A DNA stretch of 61,353 nt, counting the filler, from Sphacelaria rigidula (Eukaryota), in NCBI GenBank assembly GCA_964200075.2. It is 11 parts of 11 records of this genome, joined end to end, with 100 filler letters (N's around TTAATTAATTAA, not from the genome) between each part and the next. Parts side by side here need not be neighbours in the genome. Positions count along the whole stretch, not along the records: positions 39,110 to 44,595 come from CAXNAA020026929.1; 10 more parts are not named here. The stretch is one strand, 5' to 3'. The notes beneath the pieces were generated by a model. It worked only from the letters and a program-made list of their open reading frames with translations, ran no database searches and had not been told where the DNA came from. Position numbers and translations under genes: made by a program. Below, one piece after another: positions 7,950 to 61,353 of this stretch (the first letter of the stretch is position 1; each line of letters opens with the position of its first letter).

Positions 7950-9745
7950 CGCAAACATGAAGCAGTGCTTCACACTGAAGCAGTGGCACGATACTTTAGG
8001 ACACATCGATCCGGCTGTCATGAAATACCTCGAGAAGCCTGGGCTGATCAACGTCAGAGTCATCCTACGATAGGGAGGGGTATCTGGTTGCACGAAAAAA
8101 GAGGCTCATAAGTGTGTCAGGCATCCTTCCACACTTACGTTGCGCTTGTATTTGNNNNNNNNNNCTGACTCGAAATTTCGAGCAACAAATGGCCCAAAAT
8201 ATCCCCCCCCCTATCGTAGGATGACTCGTCACTGATACCACGATGGCGTCCGAGATGCGCTGCCGCGTCTGCAAGGAATGCAAGTCCAAGGTGCTCAGCT
8301 TTGGCCGCGGCGACAGGCGTTCCAAAGCACCAGGTGAAGTTGTGCACGCCGGTCGTGAAGGGCCTTTCCACGCCGATGTCACGGGAATGAAATACTTTCA
8401 GGTTTTCGTGGACGAGGTCAGTCGAGACAAGCACGTTGTTGGACTCAAGACACGATATATGCTGCCACTGGCGCCACGGGAGCCTATATCGACGAAATGA
8501 CCGTGAGAGAGTGATCATCAAACGTATTAGCGGAGACATCGCTGGGGAACTTAAACGGTCAGTCAACTTACAATGGATGCTGACCAATCGCGGCATCAAA
8601 TGGCGCTACTCACCGCCAAGGACACCGCGAAGTAATGGAGTCGCTAAACGTGCAATTCAACAAATGATGAGGATAGAACGCAGCCAACTGGTGGAAGAGG
8701 GACGCGGAGAGGACTACTGGTTCTCGGCTAAGATCCTAGACATCGTGGGGGAGCTGAAGGCGGTCAAATTCAGTGATGACGAGGACAAACCATCGGAAGA
8801 AGAGGAAGCAGCGCCAATCGACGGCGATGATGGCCCGGGCGGACAGCCACCACAGGACCCGCATCATCGAAGCGCTCTTCTCCGGGTAGTGGACTGCGCA
8901 GGTCCAGTCGACTAGCGCAACGGCATCAAGGGAGCAACGCACAGTAGCGCCTTAGGAGTTCTGACGACCGTAGTTCTGATGACGAAAGTTCCCTCGCAAG
9001 CCTTTTACAAGATCAGGACAAAGGCACATTGTGCATTATCGGCGGCGAAATTATCACTTTATCACAGGAACCGTCGACAGCGAAAGAAGCCCCGACAGAA
9101 CCTGACGCTAACAGATAGAAAGTGGTCATGGAAGAGAAACTCCAATGGGAAGACAACGAGTCTCACAGCCGAGAGGCCGGTGAACCGTTGGGACCACGGG
9201 TGTCACCGACGGCGTCTGTAACTCATGCGACACCAAGCGCGGACAAGCGCTCCGAAGGCTTAAACACCGAGGGATCCCAGACGAGAAACGAGCAGCAGGT
9301 TGGACTGGAGGATCAAGCCATCTCAAACGGAGATGATCGTGAACGGGACCGAATCACCGAACCACCGGAGATGCTGGGCGATAACAAATGAGCGAAGCTC
9401 GAGAAAATATTCGTGCCGAGCGCGGACGGTTCTGGCCTTGACCAAGAAGCGAAGGAACAGCCCGCAGTGAAGGAAACGACAAATGCAGTGGAGGGACCAC
9501 CCAAGGGTGCGGGATGCATATCGATCAAGAACAACCTCGCACAAAGCCAACAAACTTTCACGTAGCCGTTCTCGACGAAGGATATCAAAACGGAAAAGGC
9601 GGCGACAGTCGGGACGAGTCCGGAGGGTCCAGGTTCACCACGTGACTTTAATGGCATTCGATGGAAAGATTTTCGGCTCATATCTAGCACATTGGGTGTG
9701 ATCCTATTAGCTCTCTGGAGTTACCGCTGTACGGTCATGGAGGAG
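7950..9745 (+). mobile_element. Degenerate Copia/Ty1 element: GAG-pre-integrase HHCC and integrase core; no RT/RNase H seen
   Basis: QWHDTLGHIDP…[MITE]…MRCRVCKECK; GEVVH…YFQVFVDEVSR; IKRISGD.AGE…GIKWRYSPPRTPRSNGVAKRAIQ. Acidic linker follows; PPT-like GGAGGAG at 9739-9745. Confidence 0.85.
8057..8227. mobile_element. MITE with GAG…CTC TIRs and 4-bp TSD (Sola-like)
   Basis: TIR GAGTCATCCTACGATAGGG / CCCTATCGTAGGATGACTC; TSD GTCA at 8053-8056 and 8228-8231; the same TIR recurs at 34141-34157. Confidence 0.8.
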
Positions 9746-10560: not shown

Positions 10561-11270
10561 AGGGCGTGAAGAGTGAGAGTTTGGATGCCAGCAGATGCGT
10601 TCGGTTTGTTTTTTGGAAAGTATCTGTTTTTCGTTGTTCAAATCGCGAGGACGTGAGCAGATAGAAACGTTTGTTTGGCAAGAGTAGGCGCGGTGTGGGA
10701 GTAGTACTGACGTAATCCATGATACCAGAATATCGAACGCGTATCGGGGGAAAGATGGTTGATCCCTTGAGACCACGGACTCGTCTCGATGAAGGGGAAG
10801 GGTCAGAAGTGCGATCCCCCCGAATGAAAAAATATTTGGGAATGTGTAGGTATCTCTCTCTGTATGACCCCATGCAGAGCACAACCGGTGAATTCACAAG
10901 CAATCTTGATTATCATGGCGGCGTAAGTTCCGTCTTCACACCCCGAGGACTGCGTACTTCTCCTCTAGTCTCTTGCCTTCCCCCCGAGACACTTTCTACG
11001 ATAGTCCCCCCCCCCAAAAGTGCACGATTTTGGGAGACAAAATCTTCACGTAAATCGAAATGGGAAAAGCCTAGNNNNNNNNNNNNNNNNNNNNNNNNNN
11101 NNNNNNNNNNNNNNNNNNTTAATTAATTAANNNNNNNNNNNNNNNNNNNNNNNNNNNNNNNNNNNNNNNNNNNNAGGAGCTTCCTCTCTGTCGTTGCTTC
11201 TCTCTCTGGTGATATCGTCATCGACACGCGTGTACACCGCATTTCGTTGGGTGCACCTAGCCAGAGTTGC

Positions 11271-16820: not shown

Positions 16821-17296
16821 GTACTTATGATCTTGATCTTGATGCCATAGTCATATGACAATTAACCTCGCATCCCTACAAAGCCGGGACGGAGAACCTC
16901 GCTGGATCAGGCTCGCAATCGATCACCAAGCGCGAAGCGCCGTGATGTGCTCGGCGAGTCGCACGAAGGGTGAGCTGCATCCTGTCAAGATTTTTCGGCT
17001 TGAAGCCTGCCTACTGATTATCTTGCGTTTGGATGGCAGCCTGCAATGAGTTGCTTCATTCTGTGATATCACCATCTCCGGAGACAGTCACGGCTTATAT
17101 ACTGCCTCATGGGTGTCTCACCATGTAAACCCTTGGCGTGGAATTGAGGCTCTCCCACCCCGCACAGTGTGATCTGACTCGACCACCATCATGGTTACCG
17201 CAAAAAACGCGAGCGAGAAGAAAACGGTAACCTGGTTGCCGACCTTACGCAGTTAGTGGCGTATTTTACAGCGTCATTGCCAACCGACGCCAACCC
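16821..17296 (-). mobile_element. Full-length ~480-bp SINE-like element ending in a GTAC tail; abuts poly(G)
   Basis: Homologous to 43822-44320, 33695-33983, 41521-41760 and 58743-59058; 3' end lies next to the G-run at 16784-16819. Confidence 0.85.
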
Positions 17297-21712: not shown

Positions 21713-24700
21713 CTGTCGTGTGGACACACGAAAGAGCGAGGAGGCACATGATCAGGGGTATGGGCAGCGATGGAAGAGTTCATGATTATGGGCATGGAAA
21801 ATGAAAGGTTAACGCATAGAAAAATAGAATATCCCCGGCAACACACGTACGTACTTTGCCTGCTTCGAGTTGGGGAGCTTCCCACCCTTCTGAAACAATC
21901 AGGGGAACGATCTCAGCTACACCATCAGAAGTTTCTTGGCCAAGCATTAACATTTGTTTTTGCGTTATCTCAGCTATTGCTGTAAGTCAGAAGCATACCA
22001 CTTCCTGGCGCAATCATGTGTCTAACTGATGCGTACGTCCTAAAAGCGACAGAAAATCATGGCCGTGAATATTTCTGCCGCGGTGTTGGCCACGTGGCTT
22101 TTTCACGAGGCGACTCTCATCGCTATTGATCTTGTCGGTCTTACATCACAATGGCGTCGTCTACACTGCCAGAGCCATGCTGCCATAGGGGGGGGGGGGG
22201 GGCGTACTCTTTTTTTTTTTGCATTAGTTATTTTACCATTGACCCCGCNNNNNNNNNNNNNNNNNNNNNNNNNNNNNNNNNNNNNNNNNNNNTTAATTAA
22301 TTAANNNNNNNNNNNNNNNNNNNNNNNNNNNNNNNNNNNNNNNNNNNNCATTTGTCTTGAATTCAGGTCATGGAAAGCACGGCTTTTGAGTTGAACCCCA
22401 TTTTTTGTTTCAACCCCATTTTCGAGAATCCACTGTTGTTCCGTGCTAAACGGATACGATGATACATCGAAAATGCCATCATTACCATCCACACCGTTGC
22501 CAAGCCAATGGAATTCTCTCCTGTTCCCATCCAGATCATTACCGACCAAATCATAGTCTCACGTTCCCGTCCAAATAAACCACCGAAATCTACAAACGGG
22601 CGTTGTTTTTAGCCCCTCCGATGCTGTGCGATTCATCTCTTCTTCCTCAGAGCCGGCGGATCGTTCCATCGCCTGCGCCTCTTCTTGAACACCAACCACC
22701 ACCATATCCCGCACCTCATCGCGGCGCCGTTCCTCTCCACTCATAGTTTCCTTCCCGGGCTTGTCTGTTGCCGATGCCCTGGGGCCGCGGCGATACAAAA
22801 ACAGTGGAGAAGTAGTGATGTACTCGTGGTGCATTCAAGTATTTAGGGGCATAGTGGAGCACATACAGCTGCGGATTTCAAATTCTGCGCGCGCATAGTG
22901 TCAGACAAAAATGAGTACGGCTGGCCGCGAAAAGTACTTGGTGAAAAAATACATGGCGTCGTTGTTGCCTTTCGACCTTCGGGTGAGATGCTTGCTTGCC
23001 ATACGTTTCAACGCTTGTCCGCCTCGGTACGGGGTATGATCATGAAGGCGATCGAGCACAGAATGATAGGCATAGATACGATCATGTCCTCGCGGCTGGC
23101 TGCTGCGGTTTGCATGCCAGTGGGCATCTCGCATCTTCAATCAATTCTGATAATACTGTACTATGTGTATGTAGTCACGTGACGCGGCAAATTCGCAGCG
23201 GATCAGGTTGAAAAAATGGGTAGCGTAGACGGTAGACAAGCAGGCGCCAAAGGAAATACAAAACACAGCTAGCTGCCGTGGAGGGCTGGTCGCTACTCAA
23301 CGCCTCGAACCTTATCCACGCTGGGCGGGCTGAGCTCCAATGCTGCGACTTTATTGGCACCCATGTATAGCCACACCCGAATCACGCGGTCATAACACCC
23401 AACACCCTCCATCCATGTCACCAATTTTTGTAGATGCGAAGTGAACACACTTGCTTGGGCTGAACCAGCGGCATTTAGACCGCTTGACTGCCCCTGTGCT
23501 CTGCCCACCAGCGTTCCTCCTCTCTACGGCCAGCACCGTGGCCGTGTCCACCTCTTGCGAGCCATCATCGTTCGGGTGTAAACATTTATCAAAGCATTAC
23601 CCCATCGTGAACTGCAGTGCCTGTTGCGGTAGTTATGCTGCTGTGATATTGCACACCGATCGGATCTGCCTCCTTGTGACTTACCTGCCCGTTGGAGAGC
23701 AATTTGGTTGATTGTTGCGACTTGCGCCTTGCACAAGACAGCAGATGGGGGGCAACTGATGCAGGAATATATACACCTTTGAGAAAGACGCGTGGGAGAA
23801 CACCCTGCTTGGCTGGGGGCTGTCTAGGCGTTAGCTGTTCGCGCTTGCTATCTCCCGTCCTTGTCGACAGTTATCGCTTCGCAGTGGACTATTGAAAATG
23901 ACAGTGGGTATGGTGTGTTTGCGGGTGAGTGTGAACCCGATAAAGTACTGATATTTCGCCGCACTTTGTCTGGACCAAAAATACACTTTGAAATTCGGTG
24001 TAACGGACAACCGTCGTCGCGCCTTGAACGAAGCTCTCAACCAGGTGGCAAGCACTATAGTAGTCCTACAGCACATCCCCAAAAGTTTCGAGTACCTGGT
24101 GCCCTGTACGATGCACACTGCATGACGAAACGTTGTTACATGCATCTGTCCTCGACGAGTGCGCTATCGCTCATGGGTGCCTACTCCACAGTCTCCCCTG
24201 CACCCAATTGTCTCCGTAGCGTTCAGTCAGCGCCACCTTAAAGTGCACGTGTAGAGTCTATCCACGACGGTTTTTCAACGATTCATCACTGTCACCAACG
24301 TTCCACTAAGGCCGCGATAGATTTACGTTGCGAGATTTGATGTGTATTATCCTTGTGTAGCACTGCTTTCTAGTCTTGATCAGAGAAAACTGGAGAAAGA
24401 GTACACTAATGTCAAACTGTTCTGAAACGGCATCAGGGTATCGCCACTATAACGCTCTCACTACACACCCCACCATGTATGATTCTTTTGAGGATGCTGT
24501 TTTTAGCAGTGGCAAGGGCGAGGGAAGCCATGATAGTGGTTGTAGTAGTAGTAGCTGGCGGTTGTGGCGTCGGCGAGAGAGGTCATAGCGGCGACCGAGA
24601 CGAGCAGCTCGTTTCTCCGGACGGTACTACGAGAGCATGGATTGGGGTTCCGTTGCAAGCAGCTTCGACGGCGTGATTCGACTTCTGACTGCTGCCGAGA

Positions 24701-24963
24701 TAGCCCCCCCCCAAACCGGCCAAAAACGTGCACGGAGGCGATGATCATAACTNNNNNNNNNNTGCAAACGAGCCCAATAGTGGGATCGTAGCCGGTTCGT
24801 TGGATGGTGCCGGTGCACGTTTTGTGGGGGGACTATCTCGGCATTAGTCTTCTCGGCCGCCGACGCGATTGCCATCGTGGCGGACGCAACGCGATCGAAG
24901 TTGGTTTACCTTCGAGCCGGTACCTATTGACTGCAAGGGTTCTCTCTATTCGTATGAACGTGC

Positions 24964-27935: not shown

Positions 27936-28528
27936 AGGAGCGCTTAGACGCAAAGTAGACGAGGAAGAGCACCTGGAGATAAACGGGTAGCTGAGAGAGG
28001 GGATAGGGATGAAAGCATATTTGCACGGCCCGATGGACGCTGCGAAAAATATGAAATTGCTATATCGGGTGGGGGACCTAGACCTGCCAGAAACAAGGAA
28101 GAGATATACCAGTCGTCGAAAGGAGGAGAAAGTAGATCGACAGAACTGTCTCTGTGGCGAAGGAGTAGAGGGCAGAAGTCATATAGTGGCAAAGTGTGAA
28201 CTATACACGGAGGAACGGGACGTGCTAGAGGGGGAAATGCGGGACGTGAACAAAGGTGTTATGAAATCGTTTGGTGCATTAGACAGTAGGGATAAAACGA
28301 TGGCTATACTAGGAGATAGATGGTGGCCGCAGACGGCGAAACAGGACGGAGATAAGATATGTAAAAGGCTTTTGTGTAGTGTATGGAAGAAACGTGATGA
28401 GTTACGGAAAGAACGTAATGATCGCCAGAATGTAGGAGGTGTCTCTGTTAGGAGTAGGAACGGTGTTCCGTCTCGAAAGGGATGCGTGGTCAGTTGTCAG
28501 ACGACTAAGGCAAGCAACAAATGAGTAC
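27936..28528 (+). mobile_element. 3' end of a LINE: ORF2 C-terminus with CCHC-like knuckle, then tail ending ATGAGTAC before a C10 run
   Basis: ORF 28009-28524 …CLCGEGVEGRSHIVAKC…ILGDRWWPQ…; the stop codon lies inside ATGAGTAC; no poly(A). Confidence 0.85.
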
Positions 28529-31500: not shown

Positions 31501-32532
31501 CCGGTTGGAGAGAGTATGCAAAAGTTGTCGTTGCTGGATCGAGGCGACAGATTAGAGTATTTCCGAGCCCAACACTCGGCGAGCTTCTCTGAATTCATCC
31601 TGTCCAGTAAATGCGTGTCAGGTATCAGTTTTTACACTCTTCAGGCAAGGAGGACATCAATGGAGTAATATCATTTTTCGAGAGGGGTACACTTCCACAG
31701 CCTTCCCTACTTCAAAGGTCTGTCTTATTTCAGCAGGTGATGACAGGGGCGACTGATGTAGGCACAGCTGGCTATCATCAGGCCCCCTGGCTAGTGCCGT
31801 ACGGTTGTTGCCCATGTACGCGCAAGCATCCTGCCAGTGGCCACCGTGACTACATCTAGTGTAGAGCATCCTTTGCGCACCCACACAAATTCAGGTGATA
31901 TATCCCAACAGCGCATGGCAGTACGCTGAAACCGTGATGGATTGGCGTGTACTGCCCACCTCCACATCACCATCTGCCTGGTGATCGTTTATATGCTGAG
32001 GAGTATCACTCACATAAACTGATGGTTCATCCAGCCTGTGACCCCGATGCGAGGTGCACAGAATAAAATGATCGCATGCGCGTCGTGTGTCACGTGAATG
32101 GGATGGGTGAACAAACCATACTAGCGTCCTAGATCCTGTATACTTCTGTGCATCTTCAGTTTTCCGCACTCCTTCCTTTGCTTTAGCCGTGGCCCCCGCG
32201 CTGCAAAAAAACGTGTCGAAACTACGCTTCTCATTGAAAGGGCCGCACCTCCACCCCCCACCCTCCTTCCCGTGTAACGATCGTGCCGCAGTAGTTACCT
32301 CTGTCGCCTGCCAACTCAATGTGTCGGTTTACTCTAGCGTACGTGCCCATATGCGACCGAGATACTATGATAACAGATCACTTATCTTTCACATAGGCAC
32401 GACCTAAGGTTATCTTTGCTGCTTGATTGGTGCAGGGTGCTCCTGAACTGATCAGCGGGTCTCGTGAACGAGTCAGTGGCAGTGCGGGGACTACCGCAGC
32501 CTTGTCCCTTCTCTGGTGCGGTTGTGAAGGGG

Positions 32533-33422
32533 ATGCCTAACATGTGCATTCACACGAGTTGCACCACGAGAGCAACATTGGGGATAGCGGGTAGCGAGAT
32601 AGCGGAGTTCTGCGCCGCACATGCCCGAGCGGGCATGGTCGATGTGGTCAGCAGGCGGTGCGGCGAGAAGGGCTGCTCCACAATACCGTCGTTCGGCGCA
32701 GCCGGCAGCAGGAAGGCGGAGTTCTGCGCCGCACACGCCCGAGCGGGCATGGTCGATGTGGTCAGCAGGCGGTGCGGCAAGAAGGGCTGCTCCACTCAAC
32801 CGTCGTTCGGTGCAGCCGGCAGCAGGAAGGCGGAGTTCTGCGCGACACACGCCCGAGCGGGCATGGTCGATGTGGTCAACAGGCGGTGCGGCAAGAAGGG
32901 CTGCTCCACAATACCGTCGTTCGGTGCAGCCGGCAGCAGGAAGACGGAGTTCTGCGCCGCACACGCCCGAGCGGGCATGGTCGATGTGAACAAAAGACGG
33001 TGCGGCAAGAAGGGCTGCTCCACAATACCATCGTTCGGTGCAGCCGGCAGCAGGAAGACGGAGTTCTGCGCCGCACACGCCCGAGCGGGCATGGTCGATG
33101 TGGTCAGCAAGCGGTGCGGCAAGAAGGGCTGCTCCACAACACCGTCGTTCGGTGCAGCCGGCAGCAGGAAGGCGGAATTCTGCGCCGCACACGCCCGAGT
33201 GGGCATGGTCGATGTGGTCAACAGGCGGTGCGGCGAGAAGGGCTGCTCCACTCAACCGTCGTTCGGTGCAGCCGGCAGCAGAATGGCGGAGTTCTGCGCG
33301 ACACACGCCCGAGCGGGTATGGCCAATGTGGTCAGCAAGCGGTGCGGCAAGAAGGGCTGCTCCACAAGACCGTCGTTCGGTGCAGCCGGCAGCAAGAAGG
33401 CGGAGTTCTGCGCGACACACGC
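32533..33422 (+). CDS. EsV-1-7 cysteine-rich repeat protein with at least 8 tandem 38-aa C-x4-C-x16-C-x2-H units; 3' truncated by scaffold end
   Basis: Open frame from ATG 32533 (MPNMC…). 114-bp units start at 32545, 32659, 32773, 32887, 33001, 33115, 33229 and 33343. Consensus CGKKGCSTxPSFGAAGSRKAEFCAAHARAGMVDVVSRR matches the EsV-1-7 motif. Confidence 0.9.
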
Positions 33423-33522: not shown

Positions 33523-33983
33523 CGGCTTTGTAGGGATGCGAGGTCAATGGTCTGATGACTATGGCATGCATGATCATGAGTACACCCCCACCTACCCCCC
33601 CTCCCATTGCTCCGTCTTGACAAGGATGCGTGGTCAATGGTCAAACGACCAAGGCAAGCAACAAATGAGTACGCCCCCTCCCCCTACCATTCGCGAGGCA
33701 GTGTGTAAGCCGTGGTTGTCTCTGGAAGTGGCGATATATCAGAAAATGAAGCAACTCATTGGAGGCTTGTCATCCAAATGCAAGATAATCAGTTGGCCTC
33801 GGGCCGAACAATCTCAGCAGGACGCAGCTCACCCTTGATGCGACTTGCCAAAAACATCGCGGCCCTCAGCGTTTGGTAATGATTGCAAGCCTGGTCTGAC
33901 AAAAATCCGGCGTGCTCCCTCCCGGCTTTGTAGGGATGCGAGGTCAATGGTCTAATGACTATGGCATGCAAGGTCATGAGTAT
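33523..33983 (+). mobile_element. Head-to-tail stack of three truncated GAGTAC-tail retroposon copies separated by C-tracts
   Basis: 3' ends ATGAGTAC/T at 33576-33583, 33665-33672 and 33976-33983. Confidence 0.85.
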
Positions 33984-35999
33984 CTTTTCCTGACCACCAC
34001 ACGTCCTCGGCAAACCCCATCCCCGCTCCCACGGGCNNNNNNNNNNCCCGCCCCGCTTTGGGGGGGGAGGAGGGCAAGGTTATAATTACTAAGACAAAAG
34101 AGGGGCAGCATCCCCCCCCCCCCCCCCCCCCCGCCCCCGTCTATCGTAGGATGACTCTGCACGTTGCTAGGCCTGCGATAGGGGCCGAGCACTCGACTTA
34201 AGTATTAAACGGGGCCAATGGGCGGTCGAAGAGTGTGCCCGCTTGTTTTCCCTACTCCCCGCGTTACAGAAGGGCGTAGTTGCGCGTGCGAAGTGGCTGT
34301 TGAGGCATCGGTGAAGTTTCCCCTGGGTGGAAACATGCGAGCTGGGATTCCGTTCGGTGGATCATTGTTGATCGCTCCTTGATTCCTGCCCCCGGACCAC
34401 GAGAACATTATTGCGTGTAACGTTGCCTACATGCCCTCGACTGCAGCCTGCTGTAACAATGAAGATACGTTAGAGTACTGTAGACAGCGAAGCACCGTTG
34501 CTACTGTTACACCGCTCTACGAGCTTGGCCAGCCAAGGGTTCCTATTGACGGTTGGATAGTCACGCGCTGGTATTTCGACACGAGATTTATATCATCAAT
34601 ACGCGGAACAGATCCGGAGCAACAAAAGTAAAAGAAAAAATAACTCGAGAGAAAGTTGGGGCGATTTGAGATTGGAGCAAAAGACAAGTAATACTATAAC
34701 TCCGCTCACAGCAAAATAAACGGGGATTGCTTCTGTCACGATTTATCTACTTGCGTGCAGAAGATCCTTGTGTTTCGGGATATGCACGTTTTACGGCTGG
34801 CCCAGCTCGTGGCAGCAACTGTCGGGAGCACTCCCTGAGTCAAAGCAAGCCAGCAGCTTGCAGTGCTGAATACGGAATAGCCAGCACGCCGTACTTCGTA
34901 ACTGCGCACCCCGCGCTGCCGCGCACCGTGTAGGTAGTGCTTGCCGTTGCATCGTCGCCAACAAATCAAATCAAACCTAAGGGCCACTCAATCTTTACAC
35001 CTCGGAGCTTCGGCAGACACGCCTCGGAGTTGCTGTACAGCTCGAGTCATGCTCTGGTGCCCATTTTTTCCTCGGGCAAAACCTCAGTATAGCTGCGACA
35101 TGATTGATTATAGCAGGGTGCCTTGCGTAGCCCCTCCCGAGCCTTCTTCGAGCCGAACGTTTTTTTTTTCGCCCACGCTCCTGAGGATTGTAGACAAGTT
35201 CCCGCTTGCAGCGAGGTCATTCTAGCAACCATCGAACGTTTCCCCGTGGCGTAACGGTTTTCATCCACCGCTGATGTGTATGACACGGCCGACAATTTCA
35301 TCACACCACTAAAATTCCATAAGCTTGGTCCAGGTGATTCGGGAAATTCCAATTTATCCGAATCACCTGAGTGGTGGACATTTAACTTTTTCAGATCCAG
35401 ATCGCCTACCGCACGAGGCGACCTGCCAAGACGTCCTTACTCTCACATAAGCAAACGTTGCGCACCTAAACTACAGCAATGCAATGCAGCACAGAGTACA
35501 TGTACGCTGAACTGCGCTATCAGTCCCCAACTTCAATAAAAACGTCCTTCTGTCGAAGCTCCAGTGTATACAGTGATACTGTATATATATATATATATAT
35601 ACCTCCCTTGTCACATGAGTGAAGTCGGTTATGTTCGCATGGACTCTTTAACGTGTCCGATGCGTTGAGCGATGATGTGTAAAAAGTACTATTTTTTGTC
35701 GTTGTTCGCGCACTACTCTACGTGGACAAACGGCCGAAGAAAATACCAGGCCCGGAAATGGCCACTCCTGGTCTCTGTGACACGAGGAGAAGAAGTTGCA
35801 AAACACTTGTCTGAGAAACACATCACCCTCCTAGTCGGGAGTAACTCACTCCGGAGGCGACCGACAGGCGGTACTTTTCTCCCGCTCAAAAGGAAAGCGC
35901 TGACACCAAAGACTCGAATGAGAAACCTCCCCGAGCAATGCCAGACCAGTTAAGCAACCATACAGTCACTAGGGGGAAGTGGCGATTTACATTTTTACA

Positions 36000-39186: not shown

Positions 39187-39240
39187 GCCCCCCCCCCCCT
39201 CCTCTCACAAATGAGTACGCCCCCCCCCCCCTCCTCTCAC
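39187..39240 (+). mobile_element. 10-bp retroposon tail (AAATGAGTAC) flanked by a perfect 22-bp TSD
   Basis: G-C12-TCCTCTCAC at 39187-39208 and 39219-39240; insert at 39209-39218. Confidence 0.85.
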
Positions 39241-41520: not shown

Positions 41521-41760
41521 GCAATGTTGAAATGGTGAGACACCCATGAGGCAGTGTACAAGCCGTGGCTGTCTCTGGAAGTGGCGATACCACAAAGTGA
41601 AGCAACTCATTGGAGGCTGTCATTCCAATGCAACATATTCAGTAGGCTTCGGGCCGAACCAACTTAGCAGGATGCCGCTCACCCTTCATTCGGCTCGCCA
41701 AACACACCACGGCGCTTAGGTCAATGGTATCATGACTACGACATGCATGATCATGAGTAT
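41521..41760 (+). mobile_element. 5'-truncated, internally deleted GAGTAC-tail SINE copy between C-rich tracts
   Basis: Ends ATGAGTAT followed by C12; left flank CCTCCCCTCCTGCCCGC. Confidence 0.8.
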
Positions 41761-43821: not shown

Positions 43822-44320
43822 TGCTCAGTATGTTGCATGTCGTACTCGTAAGACCGTTGGCTTCGCATCCCTACAAAGCCGGGACAGAGCACGCCGGTTT
43901 TCGCCGGACCAGGCTCGCAATCAATCACCAAGCGCGAAGCGCCGTGGCGTGTTCGGCGAGTCGCATGAAGGTTTAGCTGCATCATGCTACAATAAGATTG
44001 TTCGGCCCGAAGCGTATTGCTTATCTTGCATGTGGGTGGCAGCCTCCAATGAGTTGTTTCATTTTCTGGTATCGCCAGTTCCAGAGACAGCCGCGGCTTA
44101 CACACTGCTTCATGGGTGTCTCACCATTTCAACACCATGTAGTATGATCATCCCCTTTGCGCGGAGTTCGGGTTCCTCCATCCCGCACAATTTGATCTTG
44201 CTCCACCATCATCATGGTGACCGGAAAAGAGATGTGAGCGCGCAAAAAACACGGTAACCTGGTTGCCTAGCTCACGCAGTGAGGGTGTCTTACAGCGTCA
44301 TCGCCAACCGACGCCAGCCC
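43822..44320 (-). mobile_element. Full-length ~500-bp GAGTAC-tail SINE-like element
   Basis: Same 5' end as the 17296 copy (GGGYTGGCGTCGGTTGGC.ATGACGCTGTAA); G-rich flanks on both sides. Confidence 0.85.
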
Positions 44321-44426: not shown

Positions 44427-44595
44427 TAGGAGTAGGAACGGTGCTCCGTCTCGAAAGGGATGCGTGGTCAATGGTCAAACGACTAAGGCAAGCAACAAAT
44501 GAGTACGCCCCCCCCCCGCCTGGTCCGGCGAGAACCCGGCGTGCTCCGTCCCGGCTTTGTAGGGGCGGACCCCCGATGGGGTTGGCATCGCTTGG
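44427..44595 (+). mobile_element. LINE tail (to ATGAGTAC at 44506), C10 run, then a variant SINE fragment
   Basis: 44427-44506 is nearly identical to 28449-28528; 44518-44581 matches the minus strand of 50282-50345. Confidence 0.85.
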
Positions 44596-52899: not shown

Positions 52900-55705
52900 A
52901 GTCATTTCCAGAAATTTCCGACATTAGGTGCACAAGGCGCCCAACGGAGGGAAGGGGTGGATAAAGCGTGACGTGAACGTCAAGATCTACTGCACTCATG
53001 AAAGAATCACCTTACCGATGACCGACCACATGACCTACGAGAAGGAGCACCAAGCGGTAGGTAGGCTTTTTGAGATCTTGAAGGATAAAAGCTGGTACAA
53101 AGTGCGGGGGAATCGATGGCCAAGCTTTCGGTAGCGAAGGTATACCCGGAAGCATCAGTGGAGTAGCGACCCATGGAGAACCGTACACGGAGTGGGAAAA
53201 GTGATGTACGGGACATCCCGATGTGAGTGAGGCCTTGTGTTACGCAAGCTGCTCTTGAACCTTATACCTGTACGGTGAAAATGACCTCCTTGGAGGAAAG
53301 CAGCCAGTACAGCAGCGGGGCAAGAAGACAGCAGATACGATCATGGGACGCCTGGATGGTTCACCATGAAGATTCCCTGGCACAAACGTGGGGTAATTGT
53401 GTCAAAGGAGTTGAACTTGGCTTCAGGCTACGAGCCCTTGCTGGAGGCATTATTTAGTGTCGGTGAGCCAGCAAAAGAACTGAAAGACACCAGACCCCAA
53501 CGAGTTCTAGGATTGGGATGTCCAAGTACGCTGATTACATCTCACCGATACAAATGAAACGAATAAGCTGGAGATTCTCTCGAAAGAGATCGAGAGAGAG
53601 ACGGTAAGGAAGGGCGGGTGGAGAAGTAAAGAGTGGACGAGTAAAGCACTAGTATTGCTGGTATTCGGAGTTTGTATCGATGTGACAAGAGTAGAGTTTG
53701 AAAGGAAATGTCATGCAGTTGAATTATACTGTTTGGTAAGAGGAAAAGTAGAAAGGGAGGGAGAACATTTCCGAGCCACGCTAAAACAGGGCGCGAGCAA
53801 GGAGTGAGAAAGGGTACAGACAACTGAGGTGCCGGCATGGGTTAGAAGAATAGGGTGGAGAGTATGCATAGCTAACGGAATAACAAACCTAAAGCTTAGT
53901 GCATGGGTAAACGGAGGGGGAGAGAGGCAGGAACAGGTAAGTGTCCAGAAGGGGAAGGGGGGGGGACATAGCGGCCCGAAACAAACAGATAAAGACCAAC
54001 GCAGAAACGGGGAGAACAGCCAAGCGAGGGAAAGTAAAAGTAAAAGCGACGGAGAGAGAACAATAGACAACACGAGAGCATACAATGATTCGGAAAGGAA
54101 GTTAAGGATAGGATCGTGAAACGTGCGTGGATTCGTCACAGACAAGCGCAAAAGAGAAGAGGTAGCGCAACAAGCGAGTAAACACGACCTAGATATAGTA
54201 GGAATCCAAGAGTCATGGGAGAAAAAGAGGGGGCGGAAATAGGATGCAAAGTCGAAGAGTACGTATGGATAGGGAGTAAGCGGAAGGGACAGAAGTCCAA
54301 GAGCAGGGGAGCGGGGGGAGTAGGATACTTGGTCAAGGAGTATCTGTGCGACAGTATAGAGGTGATCGACGACACGAAATTCGACGAGAGCATATGGCTA
54401 AGGGTATCAGGAGAACGGGGAAAGAAGGACTTCTTCGTAGGTAACATCTACATGCCCCCAGAATCGAAGAGTAAGGTGAACGATATGCAACGGAGGTTCG
54501 GAGAGATAGCAGCAGATCTACATGAGTACAAAAGGCAAGGAGGAGTAATGTCAGTGGGAGATTTTGATGCAAGAGTAGGAAGAGCAGGTCAACCGGATGA
54601 TATCATCGGGCAATACGGGGAAGGTGAGAAAAACATGAATGGGGTAGAAATGCTCAAGTTCCTCGAGCACAACGAGATGAAGACGCTGAACGATAGAGCA
54701 CGAAAGCCAGAGGCGCAATGGACATGGACTAGGATATACAACGGCGAGATAAAACGTTCCGTTCTTGACTATATAGTGGTAGAGCATGGGAACAGTGCAG
54801 AAATGGAAGTATTCGTCTGCGCGGAGGACGTGGGAACCACAGATCATTGCCTAATATGAACAGAAAGCCAGCCGACGAGAGCTAAAAGAAATCGGTGGGG
54901 TAGGAAGATGTACAAATGGAGAATCGATGAACTAGGTATGGAAGAAAGACGGCGAGAGTTGCAAGAAGAAGTGGAAAAAAATGCAGTGAAATTTCCCGAG
55001 CTGTTGGAATGCGTAGGTACAATTAATTCCCAAATGGAAAGAATCGGGGAGGAGCGAAGATCATAGAAGGATGGGAGCAGTTGGTCAAGCACACAGCGAG
55101 TAAAGGCAAAGGGAGGAAGCTGATCGTATGCAACAGAGCAGTAAAATGGTGGGATGAGGAAGTGGAGGAGGCTATAAGAGTAAGGAGAGAGGCCCACGCG
55201 AGATGGATGTCGAGAAAAACTGCGGTAGGATGGGAGGGGTATACTAAAGCTCGAAAGGAAGTAAAAAATATGGTACACCAGAAAAAGAAGGTAGCTTGAG
55301 GAGGTGTAGTGGAAAAACAAAAGAAGATTTCGACGGCGGGATGAAACAAATGTGCGCAGGGATAAGAGGGATAACGAGAAATCAGGGAGAAAAGATGGAC
55401 AAGGGGATAGCTACACTTCGGGCACAAAACGATAAAATGGTCAGTAGTTCGNNNNNNNNNNGTGCTAGTCGAGCACTACCGTAAACTGAGAACACCAGAA
55501 ACAACGACGGAGTTCGACGAGAATTCGAAAAATAAATCAACGCGTTGGCAGAGGCAAATGTAGAAACGTCGAAATGGGAGGATAGAGGGTCGACAGAATT
55601 GCCGAGAGAGTTCACTAGAGATGAAGTAAAGGAGCGCGCAGCTAAATTCAAGAACAGAAAGGCAGCAGGGGCAGACAGAATAGTGAATGAATTTCTGAAG
55701 TACGG
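52900..55705 (+). mobile_element. Degenerate APE-type LINE: ORF1 remnant, endonuclease and start of RT
   Basis: LRIGS*NVRG…DIVGIQESW; GGVGYLV…FFVGNIYMPP…VGDFDAR…NMNG…SVLDYI…GTTDHCLI; VKWWDEEV; KNRKAAGADRIVNEFLKYGG. Confidence 0.88.
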
Positions 55706-56970
55706 GGGGGGGGGGGGAATTATTTGTTGATTGCCTTTGTGAATTTGAAATTGAACACGCCAACAGTNNNNNNNNNNNNNNNNNNNNNNNNNNNNNNNNN
55801 NNNNNNNNNNNTTAATTAATTAANNNNNNNNNNNNNNNNNNNNNNNNNNNNNNNNNNNNNNNNNNNNACGGCAATGGCTATCGATATATACAACCCAGAA
55901 TCTATTGCGGTACACCATTTCCATCGATGACGAGTGATCTTCATATGTTGTAATTGCCAGAGACTATCGATCGACTATTGCAACATCTATTATTCCTTGC
56001 AATGCATATCAATAGATGTCTTTCACCATCTATCGTGTTCGATAATATATATCGATAGATTTTTCCCCGTGTCTATTGCTGAATCAATGAACTATTGTTG
56101 TGTCCATTGTCCAGGGTGTCCAACATTCCCGGGGATGCGAAGAAAGGTAAAAAAAAAAAACGTGGAGCGATTTGAAGTTTCTGCAAAGACTAGAAACGTT
56201 CTACGAGTATAACTCTCTGAAAATGATTAAATATGGGGGCATCTCAACTGTAGTTGTGTGTTCTTGTGTGGAGGAGATCCGTGTGCAATTTCGGCCAAAA
56301 ATCCCAGAAACTTGGCGCAGCATCCAACCTTTCGTGTGGCACGGCTGCGCTCCTTTGACCCAAGTGATGCAGTTGACTCCAGTTATGGAGGTCAGGAGAT
56401 CGAATCCCGACGGATTCCTTTTTTTTGTTCCGTCGGTAAGGTTGTAAATTATGCAGTTCATTTTTTTTCATTTTTTTCATTCAGCGGCGGTCCCGTGCGT
56501 TGCCACGTTGGTCTGCAGGTCACACCGATATACTCAAGTCGGGCTGGTAAACTTGATCATTTAAAGGTGTGACATGCAAATGCCGGATTTACTGCTTGCC
56601 CAGCTGATTGACGAAACTGAGTGAGCTCTTCCTCGATTTGAAAACCTACTTTTGAAATTGATGTGGTTGACTTGATTTGTGGATGAATGGTTGATCGATG
56701 GATTGATTGGTTGTCGCACATTCAGTGATCCCCGTGGGATGTATAGTAGTCGTGGTCATTGTCCAGAATAGAGAGGTAGTCAAGGTAGGCAACACGAAAA
56801 CAGTCGCTGAGAAAAGTGAAAAATACGCAGAGATAGAATAAACAGAGCAGCCGAAGACGGAAATAAAAAACCCGTAAGAACCAGAAATGGGCCGGCGCGT
56901 AAATGTTCGTGTTGCAATTGAAGTCATGGCATCCAACATTCACCCACATGTGCACAATATTCAACTACAG

Positions 56971-58742: not shown

Positions 58743-59058
58743 GTATTCATCATATGCATACAACAGACACAAGGCCATTGAGCTCGCATCCCTACAAAGC
58801 CGGGACGGAGCACGCCGTGGTGTGTTCGGCGAGTCGCGTGAAGGGTGAGCTGCATCGTGCTAAGATTGCTCGGCCCAAAGCCTACTGATTATCTTGCATT
58901 TGGATGGCAGCCTACAATGAGTTGCTTTATTTTCTGGCATCGCCACTTCCAGAGACAGCCACGGCTTCTACACTGCCTCATGGGTGTCTCGCCATTTGGA
59001 CACGACTTGGTACGATCATCCCTATTGTGCGGAGTGGGGGTTCTCCCGCGCCCCACAA
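58743..59058 (-). mobile_element. 5'-truncated GAGTAC-tail SINE copy flanked by G-tracts
   Basis: Flanks GAGGGAGAGGGT and GGGAGGGGGGAG(G)nT. Confidence 0.82.
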
Positions 59059-61284: not shown

Positions 61285-61353
61285 GTACTCATGATCATGC
61301 TTGCCATAGTCATTTGACCATTGACCACGCATCCCTTTCGAGACGGAGCACCG
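61285..61353 (-). mobile_element. GAGTAC-tail retroposon 3' end next to a G-tract
   Basis: Plus strand reads GGGTAGGGGGT then GTACTCATGATCATGC…CCCTTTCGAGACGGAGCACCG. Confidence 0.85.

Follow-up and report, generated by a model that had tools for sequence, protein, structure and literature searches.

A probable, extremely 5′-truncated LINE insertion at a C-run in the brown alga Sphacelaria rigidula

The window analyzed here, a stretch of 61,353 nucleotides from Sphacelaria rigidula, is made up of 11 pieces, each 5487 nt long, with N44-TTAATTAATTAA-N44 linkers between them. At positions 39187-39240, two 22-nt repeats (39187-39208 and 39219-39240) that match each other perfectly enclose a 10-mer, in the order G C12 TCCTCTCAC / AAATGAGTAC / G C12 TCCTCTCAC. 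The spacer, located at 39209-39218, is the exact 3′ end of a LINE found elsewhere in the window (28519-28528). The match to the LINE is really 12 nt long, ACAAATGAGTAC, because the final AC of the repeat also fits the element; this 12-mer occurs four times in the window, namely, in three LINE tails and in the minimal insertion, and nowhere else. Thus, the 5′ junction of the minimal insertion shows 2-nt microhomology, a usual feature of 5′-truncated LINE copies. The initial annotation of this DNA had described a 10-mer from a LINE end between identical 22-nt copies, with the C-run as a part of the duplicated target, and the sequence reads exactly so, with a 12-nt match if the overlap is counted and with C12 indeed inside a perfect duplication. 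The duplication is 22 nt long, or 21 nt if the G is part of the element. The features of the minimal insertion are as follows.

39187..39208, + strand: 5′ copy of the target-site duplication (TSD), G C12 TCCTCTCAC, same sequence as 39219-39240
39209..39218, + strand: minimal insertion, the final 10 nt of the LINE, or 12 nt with the 2-nt overlap at 39207-39208; AAATGAGTAC equals 28519-28528, and ACAAATGAGTAC matches
39219..39240, + strand: 3′ copy of the TSD, same as the 5′ copy; found in Logan contigs of X1/X3

The other copies of the family in the window are pieces of the autonomous LINE (A-type) or copies of a non-autonomous element (B-type).

16821..17296, − strand: B-type element, 476 nt, then T C9 A C26; with a C6 run 8 nt before the 5′ end
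22204..22248, − strand: diverged tail (profile E = 0.005), cut by the piece end, then G C15
27936..28528, + strand: 3′ part of the autonomous LINE (A-type), cut by the piece start, then AT C10; ORF 27991..28524, tblastn to P0003 residues 1174-1360 at 65% identity
33523..33583, + strand: B-type tail cut by the piece start, then A C5 ACCTA C7 T C3
33610..33672, + strand: 5′-truncated A-type tail, flanked on either side by C-rich runs; an imperfect TSD of 12 nt, CCCCCT(C/A)CCATT, is possible
33695..33983, + strand: B-type copy, 3′ side without a C-run (exception); its 5′ flank is the C-run behind 33672
41525..41760, + strand: B-type copy, 5′-truncated and with an internal deletion, then C12; a loose-end consensus precedes 41525
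43822..44320, − strand: B-type element, 499 nt, with a 5′ start in common with the 16821-17296 copy
44427..44506, + strand: 5′-truncated A-type tail, then G C10; 5′ flank without a C-run; the consensus of public contigs continues upstream as LINE body
44518..44595, + strand: 5′-truncated B-type (non-autonomous) copy that begins right behind a C10 run, cut by the piece end; local alignment to the B-type element at 43822
53604..55767, + strand: 5′ part of a degenerate LINE, ORF residues 1-700, containing stops and a G14 run, cut by the piece end; tblastn 48-66% identity, weak Exo_endo_phos_2 match
58743..59049, − strand: 5′-truncated B-type copy, C11 T C6 T C3 directly upstream, C-rich 3′ flank
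61285..61353, − strand: LINE-like tail whose end is B-type, cut off where the window stops, then A C5

Two candidate features were rejected. The copy ending at 41760 had been considered a 43-nt fragment and is instead the longer B-type copy with an internal deletion listed above. Likewise, the G14 run at 55704-55717 does not flank an inverted tail and lies inside the LINE coding region, at codons that read KYGGEG in relatives; the run resembles a homopolymer that expanded inside the element. Runs of C42, C8, and C18 (51619-51660, 51777-51784, and 51809-51826), 1.8 to 2.0 kb upstream of the ORF start at 53604, might be traces of the 5′ duplication that belongs to a full-length copy. Apart from this family, the window contains an ORF at 32452-33420 (+) that encodes the EsV-1-7 cysteine-rich repeat eight times (Pfam PF19114, E = 3e-117); this domain is typical of brown algae and their giant viruses.

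The 177 codons that precede 28524 correspond to the C-terminal end of long proteins found in marine metagenomes and in brown algae, and the closest named protein matches are from S. rigidula itself and from Ectocarpus sp. CCAP 1310/34. The protein P0003 (1360 aa) contains an APE-type endonuclease domain (Exo_endo_phos, residues 170-392, E = 3e-12) N-terminal to the reverse transcriptase (RVT_1, residues 740-989, E = 1e-30) and a C-terminal CxCx7Hx4C motif. An uninterrupted ORF of 1360 codons, 88% identical to P0003, is present in contig L006, so intact copies exist. The window itself carries only LINE residues 1-700 and 1174-1360, the RT core being absent from it; LINE 3′ pieces end at 28528, 33672, 44506, and 61285. 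All relatives end in ...KASNK-stop, where the stop is the TGA inside AAATGAGTAC (28522-28524), and the ORF ends 4 nt before the element does. A-type copies of 10-12, 63, 80, and more than 590 nt have the same final base and differ in the extent of 5′ truncation. Within the N-terminal ~95 residues, positions 11-91 of P0003 (homologous to window 53634-53876) are predicted to adopt a beta-alpha-beta-beta-alpha-beta fold (pLDDT 72); a Foldseek search with this N-terminal domain gave weak matches to RRM/ferredoxin-like chains, including L1 ORF1p, with a best E value of 0.05 and none at or below 0.001. Neither a scan of viral contigs for LINE relatives nor a first scan of genome contigs with a single LINE protein as the query produced a match. 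The tail at 61285-61353 (−) is a variant with one extra base before ATGAGTAC and no in-frame stop, such that the ORF would enter the C-run, and protein P0007 ends in ...QQMSTPSPPPSP..., a read-through into such a run.

The non-coding copies (16821-17296, 43822-44320, 41525-41760, 33695-33983, 58743-59049, and 44518-44595) have up to 476-499 nt in common with one another and only the last ~60 nt in common with the LINE (40-69 nt at 79-88% identity). By this pattern, the B-type copies are a non-autonomous partner of ~480-500 nt; the family is an APE-type non-LTR LINE with one ORF of ~1360 aa accompanied by that partner. This agrees with the initial annotation, which had proposed a non-LTR retroposon family lacking an A or microsatellite tail: relatives encode the EN/RT ORF, and tails are missing at the 12 ends described below. 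A search of the B-type copies for a tRNA or Rfam head found none. Retention of the last ~60 nt in a non-coding partner suggests that the reverse transcriptase recognizes that end. A conserved RNA fold in the tail was unsupported, with a consensus energy of −6.5 kcal/mol and a compensatory change in one of 14 pairs.

A profile of the last 60 nt detected 11 tails in the window (10 seeds and 22204 on the minus strand, E = 0.005), which together with the minimal insertion make 12 3′ ends, distributed over 5 of the 11 pieces; the earlier wording of about 12 copies in 5 unlinked scaffolds is fair. A C-run of at least 5 lies within 15 nt of the 3′ end in 9 of the 12 cases, compared to a window background of 1.4% (binomial P = 6e-15), and at least 8 C are found in the 15 nt after the 3′ end in 11 of 12, compared to a background of 3.3%. 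The same association was found outside the window: all seven related ends on six unrelated metagenome/MAG contigs, where the LINE ends are 49-74% identical in protein sequence to the window copy, read ...GAGTAC, usually followed by G and then by C7-C13 or C5, and in L001-L004, the junction run is the only C-run of at least 7 at the locus. The run begins 0-2 nt from the last base of the element in 9/12 window copies and in 7/7 outside copies. The association of the family with C-runs is therefore confirmed as real and highly non-random. The earlier statement that nearly all copies are followed by a C-run within 0-2 nt, with 33983 as the weak exception, holds for the 9 ends with a run of at least 5 and for 33983, which has no C-run, but has to be extended by two further weak 3′ sides, 58743 and 43822, whose longest runs are 3 and 4, respectively. 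Poly(A) or A-rich tails are present at none of the 12 window ends and none of the 7 outside ends, and the 12 window ends also lack microsatellite tails, as had been claimed. No sequence past the C-run is common to the copies in the window or to the outside ends, so nothing points to longer read-through. GAGTAC and the run are separated by G in 8 of 10 A-type ends; B-type ends have A, T, or no base at this position. Because of this variation, the sequence data do not set the exact nick site.

Such an association could be passive if the family made no target choice and simply survived or accumulated in C-rich, low-complexity DNA. Runs of all four bases are indeed frequent in the window, with 31 C/G and 22 A/T homopolymer runs of at least 8 in 60 kb, compared to ~1-2 of each expected, by our own arithmetic, in random sequence of this composition. 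However, the 0-2-nt spacing within and outside the window is too precise for regional enrichment, and we regard passive accumulation as very unlikely. Most of the 31 C/G runs have no family member adjoining, so free targets exist.

A second repeat family may also be located at, or contain, C-runs. The 16-mer TATCGTAGGATGACTC is found exactly three times, at 8057-8072 (−), 8212-8227 (+), and 34142-34157 (+), with 0.24 occurrences expected at ≤3 mismatches; two of these lie directly or ≤9 nt behind a C-run (C9 and C21), and a similar string follows C10 in L001 (~2029-2050). The C-runs at 115-127 (−), 11006-11015, and 24704-24712 come after ...ACGATA(GT) or ...GATAG and have AAA(A)C behind them.

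The 5′ side of the copies was then considered, with 5′ ends placed by alignment in nine copies. A C-run of at least 5 is present within 30 nt upstream of 7 of these 9 ends, compared to a background of 2.9% (P = 5e-10), the exceptions being 44427 and 41525. Three of the nine copies lie directly behind the C-run of another family member, and without them, the count is 4/6 (P = 1e-5). C-enrichment of the 5′ flanks had been named in the initial annotation as a point on which its reading depended, and the enrichment was found. Tandem arrangements are also seen in the Logan contigs of four public sequencing runs, X1, X3, and X4 among them: contigs that match up to 44517 go on with more C in 913, 799, 422, and 84 cases, and joints of tail, C-run, and tail (from 44513/44514/44517 back to 44442) occur in 53 (X1), 34, 22, and 1 contigs. 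Runs on both sides of the copies and between tandem units would likewise arise if the C-runs were made de novo, that is, if the reverse transcriptase added untemplated G to the primer before copying the RNA, and again at the cDNA end, at a target without a C-run; in two copies (59049 and 44518), the 5′ run indeed abuts the element. In the other 5 of 7 copies, however, the run lies 2-10 nt from the element, which fits duplication of the run together with a few bases and not addition of bases at the junction. Moreover, at the minimal insertion, TCCTCTCAC parts the 5′ run from the element, and this 9-mer is duplicated along with an equally long run, and C/G runs without an element in their vicinity are numerous in the window. 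De novo synthesis of the runs is thus highly improbable.

Target-site duplications are less uniform than the flanking runs. A clean TSD is found in one of the eight copies with both ends, namely, the minimal insertion, and imperfect 12- to 13-nt TSD-like matches are seen at three further copies. Cognate flank pairs reached a mean of 9.25 compared to 7.96 for non-cognate pairs (permutation P = 0.13), a difference driven by the minimal insertion. Of the TSDs that the initial annotation had proposed to call at 5′-truncated copies, the perfect 22-nt duplication is the clean case, and over all copies in the window, the signal does not rise above that of non-cognate pairs. The view that the C-run is part of the duplicated target, or that it at least flanks the element at either end, draws its best support from the minimal insertion and the C-rich 5′ flanks.

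Homopolymers are error-prone, and 39187-39240 might accordingly be a local tandem duplication or a homopolymer assembly error. No Logan contig listed for the four public runs spans the entire structure, and one X4 contig that covers its left part has C13 in the left run. In the same contigs, no empty site for 39187-39240 was seen. Conversely, the right half is present in contigs of two studies, with those of X1 and X3 matching 39209/39210-39537 with 0-1 differences and starting at 39209/39210. The spacer is the exact terminal 10-12 nt of the family, with only ~0.1 chance matches of a 10-mer expected in the window by our own arithmetic, and the 12-mer is otherwise confined to tails. Furthermore, the layout is 22+10+22 and not two full 32-nt units. 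An artifact at this position is accordingly extremely improbable.

Two other short copies of the element's end were observed. A fifth AAATGAGTAC, at 22909-22918, comes after GTGTCAGAC, which agrees with TTGTCAGAC of the 28528 tail at 8 of 9 bases, and is followed by GGCTGG, without a C-run, and may be either a deleted tail copy or a chance match. In L008 (2640-2665, −), the terminal 9-mer of a non-autonomous copy, ATCGAGTAC, occurs twice, 9 nt apart, and is then followed by A C5; the doubling may reflect a second stump-like or re-priming event.

We favor the interpretation of 39187-39240, with a probability of roughly 0.6, as an extremely 5′-truncated insertion of an RTE-X-type LINE into a C-run target, produced by target-primed reverse transcription at (C)n/(G)n tracts. 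Under this scenario, the first nick would fall in the G-run strand, at the 3′ end of the run (at the minimal insertion, 5′-...G12 C^ATGTG-3′), and the freed G-run end would prime cDNA synthesis at the 3′ end of the RNA (...GAGUAC, often followed by G). The second cut, on the other strand, would be made a few to ~10 nt past the far end of the C-run, such that the whole run is duplicated; synthesis would often abort early, and the 5′ end would be joined through short microhomology. The pre-insertion site at the minimal insertion would have read ...TTTCACAT | G C12 TCCTCTCAC | CCAGCC..., with the second nick 22 nt from the first. Both the nick positions and the role of the tract as a chosen target are what we infer from sequence comparison. 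That the endonuclease itself would nick next to G-runs is a reasonable conjecture, and the G-quadruplex-prone DNA mentioned in the initial annotation would be a more hypothetical element of it.

The principal alternative resembles L1 retrotransposition: a C-run at the 3′ end of the RNA, acquired by read-through or RT slippage, would pair with the nicked G-run, so that specificity would come from primer-template pairing, and the 3′ run would be partly element-derived, a true (C)n tail. A C-run lies downstream of every source copy and would be supplied by read-through, and the G that nearly always precedes the run in A-type ends is consistent with a templated GAGUAC-G-Cn end. The very long 3′ runs, such as C9 A C26 at 16821 and the 24 C in the loose-end consensus, suggest slippage. 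Other Ectocarpus LINEs carry (CAA)n or (CA)n tails, and the curators' wording "(C)n 3′" would suit a true tail, as far as the descriptions in PMC12477816 go. At the minimal insertion, however, both runs are exactly C12, with no visible growth of a tail, and the absence of any sequence common to the copies past the run is at odds with longer read-through. Given this balance, we consider the pairing scheme unlikely but far from negligible; it still requires a G-run in the target and hence overlaps with target-primed insertion at the tract, without replacing it. A wider reading is tentative, its chances being slightly under even: a brown-alga lineage of APE-type LINEs with (C)n/(G)n-specific integration would recognize its RNA inside the ORF, given that only 4 nt follow the stop codon and that the partner retains the last ~60 nt, and would exploit C-runs while also multiplying them.

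If the tract is truly chosen, the family offers a natural test of primer-template pairing versus endonuclease specificity in LINE landing, with a homopolymer that cannot come from polyadenylation. For repeat annotation in brown algae, the element boundary would be placed before the C-run and the run treated as flank. The findings also bear on why C/G homopolymers are so common in these genomes and on whether "stump" insertions of such small size make up a class of mutations that escapes notice. If the wider reading is true, the C-runs multiplied by the family would largely explain the unusual density of C/G homopolymers, and the family would become the first LINE with a mononucleotide C target to have its integration elucidated, offering a natural counterpart to the L1 model of poly(A) and T-rich targets.

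L1 nicks DNA at TTTT/AA and has a poly(A) tail. The consensus of the human L1 endonuclease is given as 5′-TTAAAA-3′ (PMC3812793). The logic of the window family is L1-like in that the RNA may end in a homopolymer able to pair with the one at the nick, old tails can serve as new targets, and 5′ truncation and microhomology are present. The family differs from L1 in that its homopolymer is C/G and not A/T and does not come from polyadenylation, its ORF ends 4 nt from the end of the element, and it belongs to another clade.

The RTE clade, reportedly described by Malik and Eickbush in 1998, is said to have a single ORF with APE and RT domains, almost no 3′ UTR, and frequent partner SINEs with the same 3′ end. 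The window family shares these traits, namely, a single APE-RT ORF, almost no 3′ UTR, and a partner with a common 3′ end. The RTE elements of the Ectocarpus library are described as ending in (CAA)n (PMC12477816), whereas the window family has a homopolymer, which is also present at the 5′ side.

Among APE-type LINEs, the simple-repeat targets given in the relevant part of PMC3812793 are (ACAY)n for Waldo, (AC)n for Mino, (TC)n for Kibi, (TTC)n for Koshi, and (TAA)n for Dong, with no mononucleotide run among them. In those families, practically all copies are embedded in the target repeat, which continues on either side. The window family is likewise APE-type and may insert into a simple repeat, with a C-run at the 3′ side of 9/12 copies and at the 5′ side of 7/9 (exceptions 33983, 44427, and 41525). 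Unlike these low-copy specialists, it is among the most abundant repeats, with very high summed depths in the public runs.

The initial annotation had not recognized this specificity as described, but RTE-X families with such features are already on record for Ectocarpus, where RTE-X is the most abundant LINE group, with 16,418 copies (PMC12477816, Genome Biology 2025). In supplementary file 1 of that article, RTEX-1a_Ec32 is listed with "single EN-RT ORF; (C)n 3′" and a "C-rich" TSD, and RTEX-2_Ec32 with "(C)n termini/TSD." The non-autonomous RTEX-N1a/b_Ec32 (607/604 bp) are described as "60 bp 3′ end 83% RTEX-1/RTEX-2," "can be present in tandem," with a "C-rich" TSD (PMC12477816). The passages of PMC12477816 that describe these families give no mechanism for the C-runs, and none for a (C)n-associated LINE was found in the literature within our scope, which excluded subscription journals and Repbase Reports. 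The value of the present case lies in the mechanism, the descriptive fact being already in a curated table. In its brown-algal host, single EN-RT ORF, (C)n 3′ end, and C-rich TSD, the window family resembles RTEX-1/2_Ec32 as described there, and its partner resembles RTEX-N1_Ec32 in the ~60 nt of LINE 3′ end and the tandem joints, although it measures 476-499 nt here compared to 604-607 bp. Protein matches between the window copies and Ectocarpus are at 38-59% identity, indicative of a relative, from another species or another subfamily, and not of the same family. We infer the RTE-X assignment from the curators' descriptions together with the Ectocarpus homologues, the families being compared by description. 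The C-run habit as such has already been recorded by the Ectocarpus repeat curators in these entries, and the family in the S. rigidula window is a further, related case.
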